Of a stretch of 64,000 nucleotides of DNA, positions 42,001 through 48,000 are shown in pieces. The stretch's first letter is position 1. Every line of letters begins with the position of its first letter. A program made the position numbers. Source of the stretch: Escherichia coli O127:H6 str. E2348/69 (GTDB lineage: Bacteria > Pseudomonadota > Gammaproteobacteria > Enterobacterales > Enterobacteriaceae); the NCBI RefSeq assembly GCF_000026545.1, contig NC_011601.1. One strand, given 5' to 3'.

Positions 42001-45000
42001 CTGGACGGAAAATCCGTCACCTTTAATGGTCAGCAGATGACCATGGAAAACTTATCTGAGATCCGGCAGGGACGGCAGGAGTGGGAGCGCCGCCTTGCGG
42101 CTCTGATTACACGACGACGGGGGCATCCCGGGTACCGGCTGGCGAGGTTCTGATGGCAATTCTTGATGATGTGATTGGCGTTTTTTCACCAGGATGGAAA
42201 GCGGCAAGGCTGCGTTCCCGTGCGGTGATCCAGGCTTATGAGGCCGTAAAAACGACGCGGACACACAAAGCCCGGCGGGAAAACCGAACTGCCGACCAGT
42301 TAAGCCAGTACGGGGCCGTGTCGTTACGTGAGCAGGCCCGTTACCTTGATAACAACCACGATCTGGTTATTGGTGTATTTGACAAGCTGGAAGAACGGGT
42401 GGTGGGGAAAAACGGGATTATTGTCGAGCCACATCCGGTATTACGCAATGGGGCCATTGCCCGTGATCTGGCAGCGGAGATACGCACCCGATGGAGTGAA
42501 TGGTCTGTCAGTCCGGAAGTCACCGGGCAGTTTACCCGTCCGATGCTGGAACGTCTGATGCTGCGTACCTGGCTGCGCGATGGTGAGGTGTTTGCCCAGA
42601 TGGTTTCCGGGCGCATAAACAGCCTGACGCCTTCTGCCGGTGTTCATTTCTGGCTGGAGGCGCTCGAGCCGGACTTTATTCCCATGACCAGTGATGAGAG
42701 CAACAGGCTGAATCAGGGCGTGTTTGTTGATGACTGGGGGCGTCCCGAAAAATATCTGGTGTATAAAAGCCGTCCCGTATCCGGGCGGCAGATGGAAACC
42801 AAAGAAGTGGATGCAGAGCGAATGCTGCATCTTAAATTTGTTCGCCGTCTGCACCAGATGCGCGGGACGTCTTTGTTGTCCGGTGTGCTGATCCGCCTCA
42901 GTGCCCTGAAAGAGTATGAAGATTCTGAGCTGACTGCAGCAAGGATCGCCGCTGCTCTGGGGATGTACATCCGGAAAGGCGACGGGCAGAGCTATGAACC
43001 GGATGGTAATGGCAGCAAGGAGAATGAACGCGAGCTTACCATTCAGCCAGGCATTATTTACGACGATCTGAAACCCGGCGAAGAAATCGGAATGGTGAAG
43101 TCGGATCGTCCCAATCCTAACCTTGAAACTTTTCGTAATGGTCAGTTGCGTGCCGTGGCGGCGGGCAGTCGTCTGAGTTTTTCCAGTACGGCACGCAACT
43201 ATAACGGCACTTACAGCGCCCAGCGTCAGGAACTGGTTGAGTCTACTGATGGCTACCTGATCCTGCAGGACTGGTTTATTGGTGCCGTCACCCGCCCGAT
43301 GTATCGTGCTTGGCTGAAACAGGCTGTGGCATCCGGTGTTATCAGGCTACCCCGCGATCTTGACCGTTCTTCACTGTATACCGCGGTGTATTCCGGACCA
43401 GTGATGCCGTGGATTGACCCTGTTAAGGAGGCTGAGGCCTGGAAAATCCAGATTCGTGGTGGAGCGGCGACAGAATCAGACTGGGTACGTGCAGGTGGTC
43501 GTAATCCGGATGATGTCAAACGTCGGCGCAAGGCCGAAATTGATGAAAACCGCAAGCTGGATCTGGTATTTGATACCGATCCGGCCAGTGATAAAGGAGG
43601 CAGCAGTGCCGCAACGAAACGACAGGAGCCACAGCACACCGACGACCAGTCCGAAGAATAATTCCTGGTTCAGGATGCAGGCTGGTCACCAGAGTGACGC
43701 GGATATTTATATTTATGACGAGATTGGTTTCTGGGGTGTTACAGCGAAGCAGTTTATCAGTGATCTGAATGCACTGGGCGATATCACCCACATTAATCTC
43801 CATATTAATTCACCGGGTGGCGATGTCTTTGAAGGCATCGCCATTTTTAATGCGCTGAAAACACATGGTGCGTCCATTACCGTTTATGTCGACGGTGTGG
43901 CGGCGTCAATGGCGTCGGTCATTGCGATGGTGGGAAACCCGGTCATTATGCCGGAAAACACCTTCATGATGATTCATAAACCATTTGGCTTTACGGGCGG
44001 TGATGCGGAGGACATGCGCACCTATGCCGACCTGCTCGATAAGGTTGAGGCGGTTCTGTTACCCGCTTATGCACAGAAAACCGGGAAAACCACCGATGAA
44101 ATTGCTGCCATGCTGGCGGATGAGACCTGGATGTCCGGTGCCGAATGTCTGGCACAGGGATTTGCTGATCAGGTAACGCCAGCCGTTAAGGCAATGGCAT
44201 GTATTCAGTCAAAACGTACAGAGGAATTTAAAAAGATGCCGGAATCCATTCGAAACATGATTACTCCGCCACGCAACAGTGCTCCACGCGTACAGGATGA
44301 TGAACCTGCAGCCTCCCGGACGCCAGTGCAGGCAGCAGCACCCGTGGTGGATGAAAACAGTATCCGTGCGCAGGTACTGGCAGAGCAAAAAGCGCGTGTA
44401 AACGGTATTAATGATCTGTTTGCCATGTTTGGCGGGCGTTATCAGACGCTGCAGGCTCAGTGTCTTGCCGATCCTGAATGTTCGCTGGAGCAGGCCCGCG
44501 AAAAGTTGTTGAACGAGATGGGGCGCGAGTCCACGCCATCCAATAAAAATACCCCGGCTCATATTTATGCCGGTAACGGTAATTTTGTGGGGGACGGGAT
44601 CCGCCAGGCGCTGATGGCGCGTGCCGGATTTGAAAAAACCGAACGTGATAATGTCTACAACGGGATGACCCTGCGTGAATATGCCCGTATGTCACTGACT
44701 GAACGGGGTATTGGGGTTTCCAGTTATAACCCGATGCAGATGGTCGGTGCGGCGTTCACACACAGTACGTCTGACTTCGGTAATATTCTGCTGGATGTTG
44801 CGAACAAAGCCATTCTGCAGGGCTGGGAAGATGCCCCTGAAACCTATGAACAGTGGACGCGGAAAGGTCAGTTGTCTGATTTTAAAATTGCCCATCGTGT
44901 GGGTATGGGGGGCTTCAGTGCTCTGCGTCAGGTGCGTGAAGGGGCGGAATATAAATACGTCACCACCGGAGATAAACAGGCCACTATTGCACTGGCGACC

Positions 45001-48000
45001 TATGGCGAGCTGTTCAGTATCACCCGTCAGGCCATTATCAATGATGATCTGAATATGCTGACCGATGTCCCGATGAAACTGGGCCGTGCGGCGAAATCCA
45101 CTATTGCCGATCTGGTTTATGCCATTCTGACGTCTAACCCGAAAATCTCCACAGATAATGTAAGTCTGTTCGATAAAGCGAAACATGCAAACGTACTGGA
45201 GAGCGCTGCAATGGACGTGGCATCGCTGGATAAAGCCCGCCAGTTGATGCGCGTTCAGAAAGAGGGGGAGCGTCATCTGAATATTCGTCCTGCGTTCGTA
45301 CTGGTACCGACGGCGATGGAGTCTGTTGCTAACCAGGTCATTCGCTCCTCAAGTGTCAAGGGGGCTGACATTAACGCCGGTATTATTAACCCGGTGAAAG
45401 ATTTTGCGACCGTTATTGCAGAGCCTCGTCTTGATGATAACAGCCAGACCACCTTCTACCTGGCTGCGTCCAAAGGCTCCGATACGATTGAAGTGGCTTA
45501 TCTCAACGGTGTGGATACGCCATATATTGATCAGATGGAGGGCTTCAGTGTGGATGGCGTGACAACGAAAGTGCGTATTGACGCCGGTGTCGCGCCAGTT
45601 GATCACCGCGGTCTGGTGAAATGTACGGCGTAAACGTCGCAGACAACAACTCTGATGGCCCGTAAGGGCTTTTTTTGTACCTGAAATCAGCCCCTGAACG
45701 GGGCTGTGCGGAGACAGTTATGGCAAAGAATTTTGTAGAAGAAGGAAAAACGGTGGCGATTGTTGCCAGTGCAGCCATCAGCAGCGGAGATCTGGTGCAG
45801 GTGGGTGATGTTTTTGCGGTGGCGCTGACCGATATTCCACAGGGTGAAACAGGCGACGGCATGACCGAAGGTGTGTTTATCCTGCCTAAGCTGAAAACGG
45901 ATGACATGAAAACGGGTAAGAAGGTTTATCTGAAGTCCGGAAAAGTTCAGCTGACTAACAGCGGCTCTGATCCGCTGGTCGGGGTTGTCTGGGCAGATGC
46001 CGGAACCAGTGCAGAAGAAGTGCCGGTAAAACTCAATGTCTGATCCCTTTTCTCGGCTGGCAGCGCGTATGGATGCGATCACGGTCAGAAAGATGGGAAA
46101 GACAGCCTCGATTAATGATGTCGATATGGCTGTGATCCCGGGCGAAACACTGGCAGAGCTGAATGCTCTGTCCGGACCTGCTGTCTCTCTGGTGGTGTTT
46201 TCTTTGGGATACCGCCCACGGCGCGGGGATCGCGTTGTTTATGACGGACAACATTGGACGGTCACACGGCATGAACGCTTTAACGGTAAGCCAATGATCT
46301 TTATTGAGTAAAGAGGTGTGGGATGAAGGGGCTTGAGAATGCCATCCGCAATCTGAACAGCCTTGATACCCGTATGGTGCCACAGGCCAGCGCATGGGCG
46401 ATAAACCGTGTGGCACAGAAAGCGGTCTCGGTTGCCACCCGGCAGGTTGCCGGGAATACCGTTGCGGGAGATAACCAGGTGAAAGGGATACCCCTGAAAC
46501 TGGTACGTCAGCGTGTCCGGGTGTTTAAAGCCAGTCCGTCAGGAAAAATGACGGCCAGGATCCGCGTCAACCGGGGCAATCTGCCCGCCATTAAGCTGGG
46601 GACAGCCCGGGTCAGACTGGCCCGGCGTGGTGGAAAACTGCAGTACCGTGGCAGTGTGCTGAAGGTGGGTAAATATCTTTTCCGGGATGCGTTTATTCAG
46701 CAACTGGCGAATGGTCGCTGGCATGTGATGCGGCGTATTGATGGCAAAAATCGTTACCCCATTGATGTGGTGAAAATCCCGTTGTCCGGACCGCTGACAC
46801 AGGCATTTGAAGATGCCCGCGACCGCATCATTGCTGCGGAAATGCCGAAACAGTTGGGTTATGCACTGAAACAACAACTGAGGTTATGGCTGACCCGATG
46901 AACCGACATACACAAATCCGCCAGGTCGTACTGGCACGCCTTCGGGAACAGTGTGGAGACAGCGCCACGTTTTTTGACGGGCTTCCGGCATTTGTTGATG
47001 CGCAGGAACTGCCTGCCGTGTCGGTGTGGCTGAGTGATGCTCAGTACACCGGAAAAATGACGGATGAAGATGACTGGCAGGCTGTTCTGCATATTGCTGT
47101 CTTCATCCGGGCACAAGCACCGGATTCAGAGCTGGATATGTGGATGGAGAGCACCATTTTCCCGGCCCTGAATGATGTACCGGCACTTTCCGGACTCATC
47201 GACACCCTGATCCCACTCGGTTTTAACTATCAACGTGATAATGAGATGGCCACCTGGGCGATGGCGGAAATCACGTACCAGATCACGTACACGAATTAAG
47301 GAGGTGGTAATGACCACACCAAATCCACTGGCAAAAACGAAAGGTGCGGGAACGACGTTCTGGATGTATACCGGCAACGGCGACGCATTTGCGAACCCTT
47401 TGTCGGACACTGACTGGCTGCGTCTTGCGATGGTGAAGGATCTGCAACCTGGCGAAATGACCGCTGATGCAGAAGATGACACTTATCTCGATGATGAAGA
47501 TGCAGACTGGAAAACGACAACCCAGGGGCAGAAATCCGTTGGTGATACTTCGGCGACGCTGGCCTGGCGTCCGGGTGACAGCGGGCAGAAAAAACTGGTT
47601 CAGTTGTTCGACTCCGGTGAAGTCTGCGCGTTTCGTATCAAATATCCCAACGGCACTGTTGATGTTTTCCGTGGCTGGCTGAGCTCACTGGGTAAAACCA
47701 TTGCCTCAAAAGACGTGATGACCCGCACAGTGAAAATCAGCGGTGTGGGGCGTCCGTATCTGGCAGAGGAAGGCACTGAAACCGTGGGCGTTACCGGGCT
47801 GACGGTGGCACCGGCATCTGCCAGTGTAAAAGTGGGAGCAACCACCACGCTGACCTTTACAGTAAAACCTGACGGAGCCAGTGACAAAGCGATCAGTGTG
47901 CATTCGACAGATCCACAGACTGCCACGGTGACCCTGAACGGGCTTGTGGCCACGGTGAAAGGCGTGAAGCAGGGCAGTGTCAGCATTGTGGGCATGACTT

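Follow-up and report, generated by a model that had tools for sequence, protein, structure and literature searches.

A protease–capsid fusion gene in a lambdoid prophage of Escherichia coli E2348/69, very probably of the Gifsy-2 tripartite type

Introduction

Are the head protease and the major capsid protein of a lambdoid prophage in E. coli O127:H6 str. E2348/69 made as one polypeptide, and if so, to which known arrangement of phage head genes does the locus belong? The question arises at positions 43675–45633 of the window that we analyzed, a 64,000-nt stretch of contig NC_011601.1, where a prohead protease and a major capsid protein had been predicted to share a single fused ORF in place of the separate C, Nu3, D and E genes of lambda.

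Results and Discussion

A single frame encodes a protease, a helical domain and a capsid protein

On the + strand, 43675–45633 is one uninterrupted frame that encodes 652 aa from an ATG at 43675 and that the ORF listing shows to be open from 43414. The likeliest translation begins further upstream and gives 675 aa; positions in the 675 numbering equal those in the 652 numbering plus 23 (e.g. Ser101 is Ser78). The gene and its parts are:

43675–45633, + strand: the frame as originally predicted, from an internal ATG, 652 aa (ORF listing, Pfam, NCBIfam, PHROG)
43606–45633, + strand: the whole gene in its likeliest translation, a protease–scaffold–capsid polyprotein of 675 aa and 73.5 kDa (start chosen by PGAP for the identical gene of E2348/69)
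43666–44181, + strand: ClpP-fold (MEROPS S14-like) head-maturation protease domain, residues 21–192 of 675
44182–44343, + strand: segment conserved after the protease domain (AMACIxSKRxEEFxxMP), then a variable, disordered linker rich in Pro, Ala and Gln (alignment, AF2)
44344–44526, + strand: three-helix, scaffold-like (delta-domain-like) module, residues 247–307 (AF2, alignment)
44527–44583, + strand: second flexible linker (ESTPSNKNTPAHIYAGNGN), where maturation cleavage is predicted to release the capsid protein (AF2, alignment)
44584–45630, + strand: HK97-fold major capsid protein domain, ∼349 aa, 38 kDa (Pfam, profile search, Foldseek)

The fusion of protease and capsid in a single ORF was confirmed by the ORF listing, Pfam, NCBIfam and PHROG. 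The encoded protein contains the motif quoted in the original prediction (HINSPGGDVFEGIAIFNALK) and is 100% identical to the product of an E2348/69 gene whose annotation reads ClpP-like prohead protease/major capsid protein fusion protein. It is a member of NCBIfam NF045540 (scaf_prot_MCP1; 985.3 bits against a cutoff of 475, E = 1.6e-296), and no frameshift was found: the NF045540 alignment runs end to end (model positions 2–651 of 652 to residues 9–651) and the PHROG 133 match covers the full length (residues 1–652).

A protease domain was found at the N-terminus by Pfam (CLP_protease, aa 23–168 in the 652 numbering; E = 6.5e-36). The domain has the ClpP (MEROPS S14) fold with the catalytic Ser101 and His124 in place (Ser78 and His101 in the 652 numbering), but the third member of the triad is not Asp; Glu173 (Glu150) occupies the ClpP Asp position, which among 74 homologues is Glu in 64 and Asp in 6. 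Glu could fill the same role as Asp, and its presence argues for a phage subfamily rather than against protease activity. Of the description of this protease as "ClpP/S49-like", the ClpP/S14 part held and the S49 part did not, the S49 (SppA) HMM scoring the fusion protein far below its cutoff; lambda gpC is an S49 protease, whereas the one here is S14.

The predicted C-terminal capsid-like domain was also supported by Pfam (Phage_capsid_4, aa 352–649 in the 652 numbering, E = 7.4e-55, with Mu-like_gpT also matching), and its profile matched the solved capsid proteins 8rkc, 8rkx and 9jod (E ∼1e-12). Fold searches with the full-length model were dominated by ClpP and crotonase matches, with no capsid match among those visible, and the capsid fold search used a separate model restricted to the C-terminal part. 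The best 50 Foldseek matches to this second model were all phage capsids or encapsulins (probability 1.00), and its E-loop region was poorly predicted (pLDDT <50). The domain has both the HK97 fold and homology to known capsid proteins. In such prophages the capsid protein is encoded by the C-terminal half of a gene that often carries the label Clp protease.

On one polypeptide, a small three-helix domain sits between two flexible linkers, the first joining it to the N-terminal ClpP-fold serine protease and the second to the C-terminal HK97-fold capsid domain (mean pLDDT of the full AF2 model, 88.7). Residues 225–246 of the first linker have pLDDT values <50 and are poorly conserved and gapped in the alignment. 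The middle domain is predicted with high confidence (helices 250–273, 280–288 and 294–307; pLDDT 90–97), and the three-helix module is kept in all five phages compared; a scaffolding role is suggested by its position together with the name scaf_prot_MCP1 given to the NCBIfam model. The second linker (pLDDT 54–75) lies in an alignment region rich in indels, and maturation cleavage is predicted to fall within this region. A conserved helical domain in the middle, absent from the earlier two-part description, makes the gene tripartite.

Relationship to Gifsy-2, lambda and HK97

Two neighboring genes help to place the fusion gene:

42150–43661, + strand: lambda-family portal gene, immediately 5′ of the fusion gene and overlapping it at its own 3′ end (Pfam Phage_portal_2, E = 6e-82)
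45720–46043, + strand: separate gene for a 107-aa capsid cement/decoration protein (Pfam Phage_cement_2, E = 1.3e-20)

The closest known system is Gifsy-2, whose capsid gene product (STM1034.3n, NC_010393) shares 70% identity along the entire length (662 aligned positions). Pfam, sequence identity and AF2 agree on the same single-ORF architecture, an N-terminal ClpP-like protease, a central domain of ∼150–200 residues and a C-terminal capsid protein. The gene order is also shared (TerS, TerL, W-like, portal, fusion, cement, Hc1, Z, U, V), the fusion being preceded by a lambda-family portal gene and followed by the gene for a 107-aa cement protein that is 61% identical to Gifsy-2 STM1034 and is named head decoration in the RefSeq record of phage cdtI; a sequence search with the cement protein found no solved relative. 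Differences from Gifsy-2 lie in the length and sequence of the N-terminal extension and of the two linkers, and in the host, which is E. coli here and Salmonella for Gifsy-2. A passage of PMC12315714 attributes the "tripartite capsid gene" of Gifsy-2 to Effantin et al. 2010 (Virology 402:355), and one in PMC8538268 describes a trimeric Gifsy-2 decoration protein at the 3-fold axes. We conclude that this lambdoid prophage carries, with high probability, a tripartite capsid gene of the Gifsy-2 type. The fusion is real but ordinary, being already known from Gifsy-2 (2010), from an NCBIfam model of its own and from standard annotation.

The other members of NF045540 (cdtI, mEp460, mEp213, phi458, Tritos and Stx2 phages) show no difference of substance from the gene here. 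In contrast, NF045541 (scaf_prot_MCP2), a second family of prohead protease/capsid fusions, aligned to the scaffold and capsid part (residues 197–649) and not to the protease part, and its score of 400 bits was below the cutoff of 525; NF045541 is a sister architecture, with the present gene outside that family.

Comparison with lambda bore out the prediction of a mosaic head module, the tail genes being 50–55% identical to those of lambda and the terminase and portal only 21–25% (portal product versus gpB, 21%). None of lambda gpC, Nu3, gpD or gpE was recognizably homologous: in BLASTP against lambda proteins C was the best match (E = 0.057), and Nu3, D and E all gave E ≥0.8. Lambda shares with this locus a protease and scaffold in one frame and a separate decoration protein, but its capsid protein is separate whereas here it is fused. 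Because a separate decoration/cement gene follows the fusion, only C, Nu3 and E are merged, and the claim that D too had been replaced fails. The cement protein is of the Phage_cement_2 type, with no significant BLASTP similarity to gpD.

HK97 gp5 likewise joins an HK97-fold shell domain to a scaffold-like N-terminal propeptide (the delta domain), and in both cases the fused propeptide is presumably removed by a phage protease. The HK97 protease (gp4), of the herpesvirus-assemblin-like family, is however a separate gene, whereas here the protease is fused and ClpP-like; HK97 also lacks a cement protein and uses covalent cross-links, whereas a cement gene is present here.

Proposed head assembly and state of the prophage

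By analogy with Gifsy-2, HK97 and lambda, the lambda-family portal would be the site on which the C-terminal domains build a T=7 procapsid; the protease and helical domains would face inwards and, in the manner of the HK97 delta domain, serve as an integral scaffold. Crowding within the shell would switch on the protease domains, which would cleave within or close to the second linker and degrade the N-terminal ∼33 kDa, so that a capsid protein of ∼38–40 kDa remains; after DNA packaging and expansion, the cement protein would bind and stabilize the shell. The processing, cleavage site, scaffolding by the middle domain and T number in this scheme are carried over from Gifsy-2 and HK97. For Gifsy-2, the protease and central domains are reported to be removed by proteolysis to yield the mature capsid protein, in a T=7 shell that bears decorating trimers.

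The prophage copy in the window is probably tail-defective, its tape-measure gene carrying a 1-nt deletion relative to phage cdtI and PGAP marking both the tape-measure and gpJ genes as frameshifted, and the fusion gene in E2348/69 may never contribute to an infectious particle. These lesions favor the view that the prophage is defective and the gene now an inert relic without function in this strain, which we regard as possible but doubtful, given that the gene itself is intact, that it differs from its counterpart in the inducible phage cdtI at only ∼0.1% of bases and that heads could still assemble. Even if correct, the relic view would concern activity in one strain and not the identity of the gene as a Gifsy-2-type capsid gene.

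Translation most likely starts at GTG 43606

The start of the gene had been placed at ATG 43675, and this assignment is probably incorrect. Instead, translation most likely begins ∼69 nt upstream at GTG 43606, which is preceded by a ribosome binding site:

43594–43600, + strand: Shine-Dalgarno sequence AAGGAGG, 5 nt upstream of GTG 43606 (read from the sequence)

The same arrangement (AAAGGAGG-N5-GTG) is found in mEp213 and in an Stx2d phage, and the start region of the Pseudomonas homologue reads GGAGG-N5-ATG. With GTG 43606 as start, the fusion gene shares its first 56 nt with the portal gene, at the 3′ end of the latter; in lambda, too, the protease gene follows the portal gene and overlaps its 3′ end (C overlaps B by 20 nt).

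Initiation at ATG 43675, giving 652 aa and no overlap with the portal gene, would use the canonical start codon, is annotated in the GenBank and RefSeq records of cdtI and would fit the NF045540 model, which begins only ∼8 residues past this Met. We nevertheless consider it unlikely, because the ATG lacks a Shine-Dalgarno sequence (the preceding bases are ...TGGTTCAGG) whereas AAGGAGG-N5-GTG is conserved, because the Met codon is replaced by an Ile codon in Gifsy-2 (ATC) and in the Pseudomonas phage (ATT), because a conserved NSW[F/Y] motif in the alignment falls upstream of it, and because PGAP and the mEp213 and Stx2d records all choose the upstream start. Thus, among the annotated starts, our analysis favors GTG 43606. 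Database records have chosen at least four different starts for this gene.

A nested start and two downstream hairpins

A second, internal start at Met188 (652 numbering; ATG 44236) might yield in addition a scaffold–capsid protein without the protease, as Nu3 is nested inside lambda C, so that most shell subunits would lack the protease. Met188 and the Pro after it are kept in all five phages of the alignment, from enterobacteria and Pseudomonas, and GAGG lies 11 nt upstream of the ATG. However, this spacing is long, and among 76 diverse family members the position is occupied by Val, Ala, Ile, Pro, Thr or Leu, and not by Met, with the adjacent Pro retained; given this lack of conservation of the Met in the family at large, we consider the nested start very unlikely.

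Between the fusion gene and the cement gene lie two hairpins:

45657–45676, + strand: hairpin 1, stem-loop GGCCC-GTAA-GGGCT (45657–45670) followed by T7, resembling an intrinsic terminator
45688–45706, + strand: hairpin 2, CAGCCCC-TGAAC-GGGGCTG, −13.9 kcal/mol, without a T run

A strong terminator had been predicted after the gene. Hairpin 1 is terminator-like in its T7 run and its conservation, but with a stem of 5 bp and a free energy of −8.3 to −8.8 kcal/mol it is too short to be called strong. It is conserved in mEp213, where it is annotated as a rho-independent terminator, in an Stx2d phage, in Gifsy-2 and in the Pseudomonas phage. Hairpin 2 lies just upstream of the ribosome binding site of the cement gene (GGAG, 45710–45713). 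Gifsy-2, which likewise has a terminator-like hairpin and a second hairpin after its fusion gene, carries a different hairpin 2 stem (CCGGCACG/CGUGCCGG) at the same location, indicating that the structure is kept while its sequence varies. Neither intergenic hairpin matched a known RNA family in Rfam. A scan for sigma-70 promoters between 43000 and 46500 found none, consistent with a location of the gene inside a late operon.

Conservation is what points to a function for these hairpins, which most likely would lower downstream expression relative to the capsid gene, stabilize the 3′ end of the transcript, or both; a Q-modified polymerase would read through the two of them. It is conceivable, at long odds, that a nested Met188 start in the enterobacterial/Pseudomonas branch tunes the ratio of protease to shell at translation and that the conserved double hairpin is a dedicated element setting the ratio of capsid to cement and later head and tail proteins; a literature search found neither role described for the protease–capsid fusion family.

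Distribution of the fusion

The gene had a DNA match in 2124 of 5426 complete E. coli genomes (∼40%), 2002 of which carried it at full coverage in the same continuous frame. Matches of at least 99% identity were present in 13 phage records, whose listed hosts include laboratory E. coli (K12, MC1061 and C), and the isolated phages cdtI, mEp460, phi458 and Tritos are among those at this DNA identity. The mEp213-type and Stx2 phages are more distant (∼77% DNA identity; mEp213 protein, 74%), and the full-length architecture recurs, at 36–60% identity, in more than 100 clusters defined at 50% identity. The fusion is old and widespread, and for a gene known since 2010 in Gifsy-2, with its own NCBIfam model and present in ∼40% of complete E. 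coli genomes, its importance beyond correct annotation is small.

That the fusion is an artefact, with separate protease and capsid genes merged through sequencing error or through a pseudogenising frameshift, is next to impossible, since, although separate ClpP-type protease genes are commoner (80 of 1649 matching phage records cover at least 80% of the query) and one relative, P0165 (L009), has the protease and the scaffold–capsid part as two ORFs, this artefact is refuted, on the sequences compared, by conservation of the fusion in the 2002 genomes, the isolated phages and the divergent clusters, with the frame kept through linker indels. P0165 was itself rejected as a truly unfused relative, because the conserved SxRIxxFxxMP segment continues in another frame upstream of its start, which identifies it as a frameshifted copy. 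Another relative, P0225, lies on a 1.5-kb contig without gene context. The names given to the gene in phage records are inconsistent and include protease, scaffold, Nu3, preconnector protease C and major head protein.

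The fusion gene is a single, tripartite reading frame

The plus-strand frame at 43675-45633, originally predicted to encode a prohead protease fused to a major capsid protein, is uninterrupted, is open from 43414 in an ORF scan, and encodes 652 aa between ATG 43675 and the stop codon at 45631-45633. In the 652-aa numbering, Pfam placed CLP_protease at residues 23-168 (E 6.5e-36) and Phage_capsid_4 at residues 352-649 (E 7.4e-55), with a weaker additional match to Mu-like gpT. A single NCBIfam model, NF045540 (scaf_prot_MCP1; cutoff 475 bits), covered residues 9-651 with 985 bits, and PHROG 133 spans residues 1-652. 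Because both models run along the whole protein and both Pfam domains were found, we conclude that no hidden frameshift divides the frame and that both domains are real. The predicted N-terminal protease and C-terminal capsid-like domain are therefore present, although the protease, described as ClpP/S49-like, belongs to family S14 (ClpP) and not to S49, the family of the lambda C protease.

An AlphaFold2 model built from 76 diverse homologues (mean pLDDT 88.7) gave the following domain map, and the gene is tripartite, not bipartite.

Domain map of the fusion protein (residues in the 675-aa numbering, from GTG 43606)
1-20, disordered N-terminus; low confidence
21-192, compact ClpP-fold domain; pLDDT above 90
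193-224, conserved short segment; intermediate confidence
225-246, disordered Pro/Ala/Gln-rich linker; pLDDT below 50
247-307, three-helix module; pLDDT 90-97
308-326, second linker; pLDDT 54-75
327-675, large alpha/beta domain; high confidence

The catalytic Ser and His of ClpP (AASM and MIHKP motifs) were found in 74 of the 74 homologues having the protease domain, with the ClpP Asp position occupied by Glu in 64 and by Asp in 6. When the C-terminal domain was modelled alone, it matched only HK97-fold shells (probability 1.00), including P2/P4, JBD30, T5, SU10 and phiCD508 capsids and encapsulins, and its profile matched solved capsid proteins with E about 1e-12. In the alignment both linkers are variable and rich in indels; the three-helix module is conserved. 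In the enterobacterial branch translation could also begin at an internal Met188 (652-aa numbering), but most of the 76 homologues carry another residue there, so such a nested start is no feature of the family.

Translation probably starts at GTG 43606

The start at ATG 43675 is probably off by 69 nt, with GTG 43606 favoured from sequence conservation. At 43675 the E. coli phages have ATG, the Salmonella phage Gifsy-2 has ATC and a Pseudomonas phage has ATT, and a conserved NSW[F/Y] motif is encoded a short way upstream. A strong AAGGAGG lies 5 nt upstream of GTG 43606, an arrangement shared by mEp213 and an Stx2d phage, and the Pseudomonas sequence reads GGAGG-N5-ATG. GTG 43606 is the start chosen by PGAP and in the records for mEp213 and Stx2d; the cdtI records start at ATG 43675, and Tritos starts further upstream still. 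The product from GTG 43606 is 675 aa (73.5 kDa), and its gene overlaps the final 56 nt of the portal gene (43606-43661), comparable to the 20-nt overlap between B and C in lambda. Public records hold at least four different starts, including a 707-aa version in some NCBI entries, and names that range over protease, scaffold, Nu3, preconnector protease C and major head protein.

The fusion is old, widespread and already named

The gene is 100% identical to that of E. coli E2348/69 (EPEC O127:H6), which PGAP names ClpP-like prohead protease/major capsid protein fusion protein. Of 5426 complete E. coli genomes, 2124 have a DNA match, which extends over 80% or more of the gene in 2002 of these. 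Sixteen phage records reached at least 98.7% identity, and 13 of these at least 99%, including cdtI, mEp460, phi458, Tritos, Ayreon and HannyBb, and the recorded hosts are laboratory E. coli strains; a group of Stx2-converting phages and others follows at about 77% DNA identity. At the protein level the full-length architecture was found in 80 phage records, among them mEp213 (74%) and Pseudomonas phage vB_Pae_CF165a (56.5% identity), and about 1570 further records matched in part, nearly always in the protease. In an exhaustive HMMER search of cluster representatives, more than 100 clusters (50% identity) aligned along their whole length, with identities of 36-60%. This conservation across E. 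coli genomes, phages and divergent clusters rules out an artefactual fusion, and the sole apparently split relative, P0165, is a frameshifted copy of the fused gene. The latter's "two genes", protease and scaffold-capsid (L009:2411-4386, GCA_000755365.1), lie in an apparently degraded prophage.

The closest precedent is the "tripartite capsid gene" of Gifsy-2 (Effantin et al. 2010), whose product has 70% identity and 83% similarity to the window protein over 662 aligned positions; its counterpart of the 107-aa cement protein has 61% identity. Gifsy-2 and the window share the order TerS (DUF1441), TerL (gpA type), W-like adaptor, lambda-family portal, fusion, cement protein, Hc1-like (Pfam family "Gifsy-2"), Z, U, V, G, T and H, and PMC12315714 describes mEp213 head proteins as similar. 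The fusion gene is thus already known, already named by a standard annotation pipeline and very common; what is useful here is a corrected start, a map of the domains and the probable tail defect of the E2348/69 prophage.

The 91-aa head-completion-like protein at 46036-46311 is called a DNA breaking-rejoining protein by PGAP and Hc1 in Tritos, while Pfam, which places it in PF13856 ("Gifsy-2"), gives that family the description of an ATP-binding sugar transporter. For a head-tail joining protein, the PGAP and Pfam names appear mistaken.

The head module is mosaic relative to lambda

BLASTP against lambda proteins gave 52% identity for U, 55% for V, 33% for G, 25% for TerL and 21% for the portal. 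The fusion protein had no significant match to gpC (E 0.057) or to Nu3, D or E (E 0.8 or worse). Together with an early region of N, a LexA-type repressor, cro, cII, O, P, ren, nin genes and Q, these comparisons identify the prophage as lambdoid. The tail is close to lambda's and the head module has only a distant terminase and portal ancestry in common with it, with a different capsid solution, in agreement with the proposed mosaicism. The fusion does not replace all of C, Nu3, D and E, as had been suggested, because decoration stays outside it, in the separate 107-aa Phage_cement_2 protein, the functional analogue of gpD. The gene for a transcriptional regulator of the Rha family (38180-38740), flanked by the lysis cassette and the small terminase gene, appears to be an accessory gene inserted there.

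Two conserved hairpins follow the fusion gene

The "strong terminator" expected after the gene is a terminator-like hairpin at 45657-45676 (GGCCC-GTAA-GGGCT, then seven T's), but with 5 pairs and about -8.5 kcal/mol "strong" was an overstatement. A GC hairpin with a T run occupies the same position in mEp213, where the record labels it a rho-independent terminator, and in the Stx2d phage, Gifsy-2 and the Pseudomonas phage. A second conserved hairpin (45688-45706; -13.9 kcal/mol) lies just upstream of the cement-gene ribosome binding site; Gifsy-2 keeps its place and structure with a different stem sequence, which suggests that the structure is under selection. Rfam had no family matching the hairpins between the two genes. 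They might keep the expression of downstream genes below that of the very abundant capsid protein, shield the transcript 3′ end, or both, and some read-through is expected in a Q-antiterminated late operon.

Proposed assembly and state of this copy

In one polypeptide, flexible linkers separate a protease, a helical and a capsid domain, with catalytic Ser and His intact and the cement gene adjacent. Gifsy-2, HK97 and lambda suggest how the head might assemble: a T=7 procapsid would form from the capsid domains on the portal, and the N-terminal parts would lie in its interior and serve as an integral scaffold. Crowding would bring the protease domains to cleave close to the second linker and to digest the N-terminal ~33 kDa, so that a shell protein of about 38-40 kDa remains, and expansion during DNA packaging would create the cement-protein sites.

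The E2348/69 copy may be idle, in that its tape-measure gene lacks 1 nt found in cdtI and the annotation gives gpJ a frameshift; the prophage is probably tail-defective, unable to make tails. Two ORFs (48780-50939 and 51023-51865) make up the broken tape-measure gene (48780-51865), which is 99.9% identical to cdtI over 3289 nt, one A having been lost after CAGAAACAG, at about 50921/50922. In E2348/69, PGAP flags a frameshift in the tape-measure gene as well as in gpJ.

Past the tail-fibre genes, the E2348/69 record holds the type III effector genes nleB2, nleC and nleD and an nleH remnant (3074174-3078314; L008:1-3615, a stretch of that record), at or just past the window 3′ end. The prophage integrase (about 19517-20590, minus strand) adjoins a frameshifted torS, and a match to the Rfam cspA thermoregulator (156 bits; gathering score 78) lies in the chromosomal part, outside the prophage, at 14550-14972 on the plus strand.
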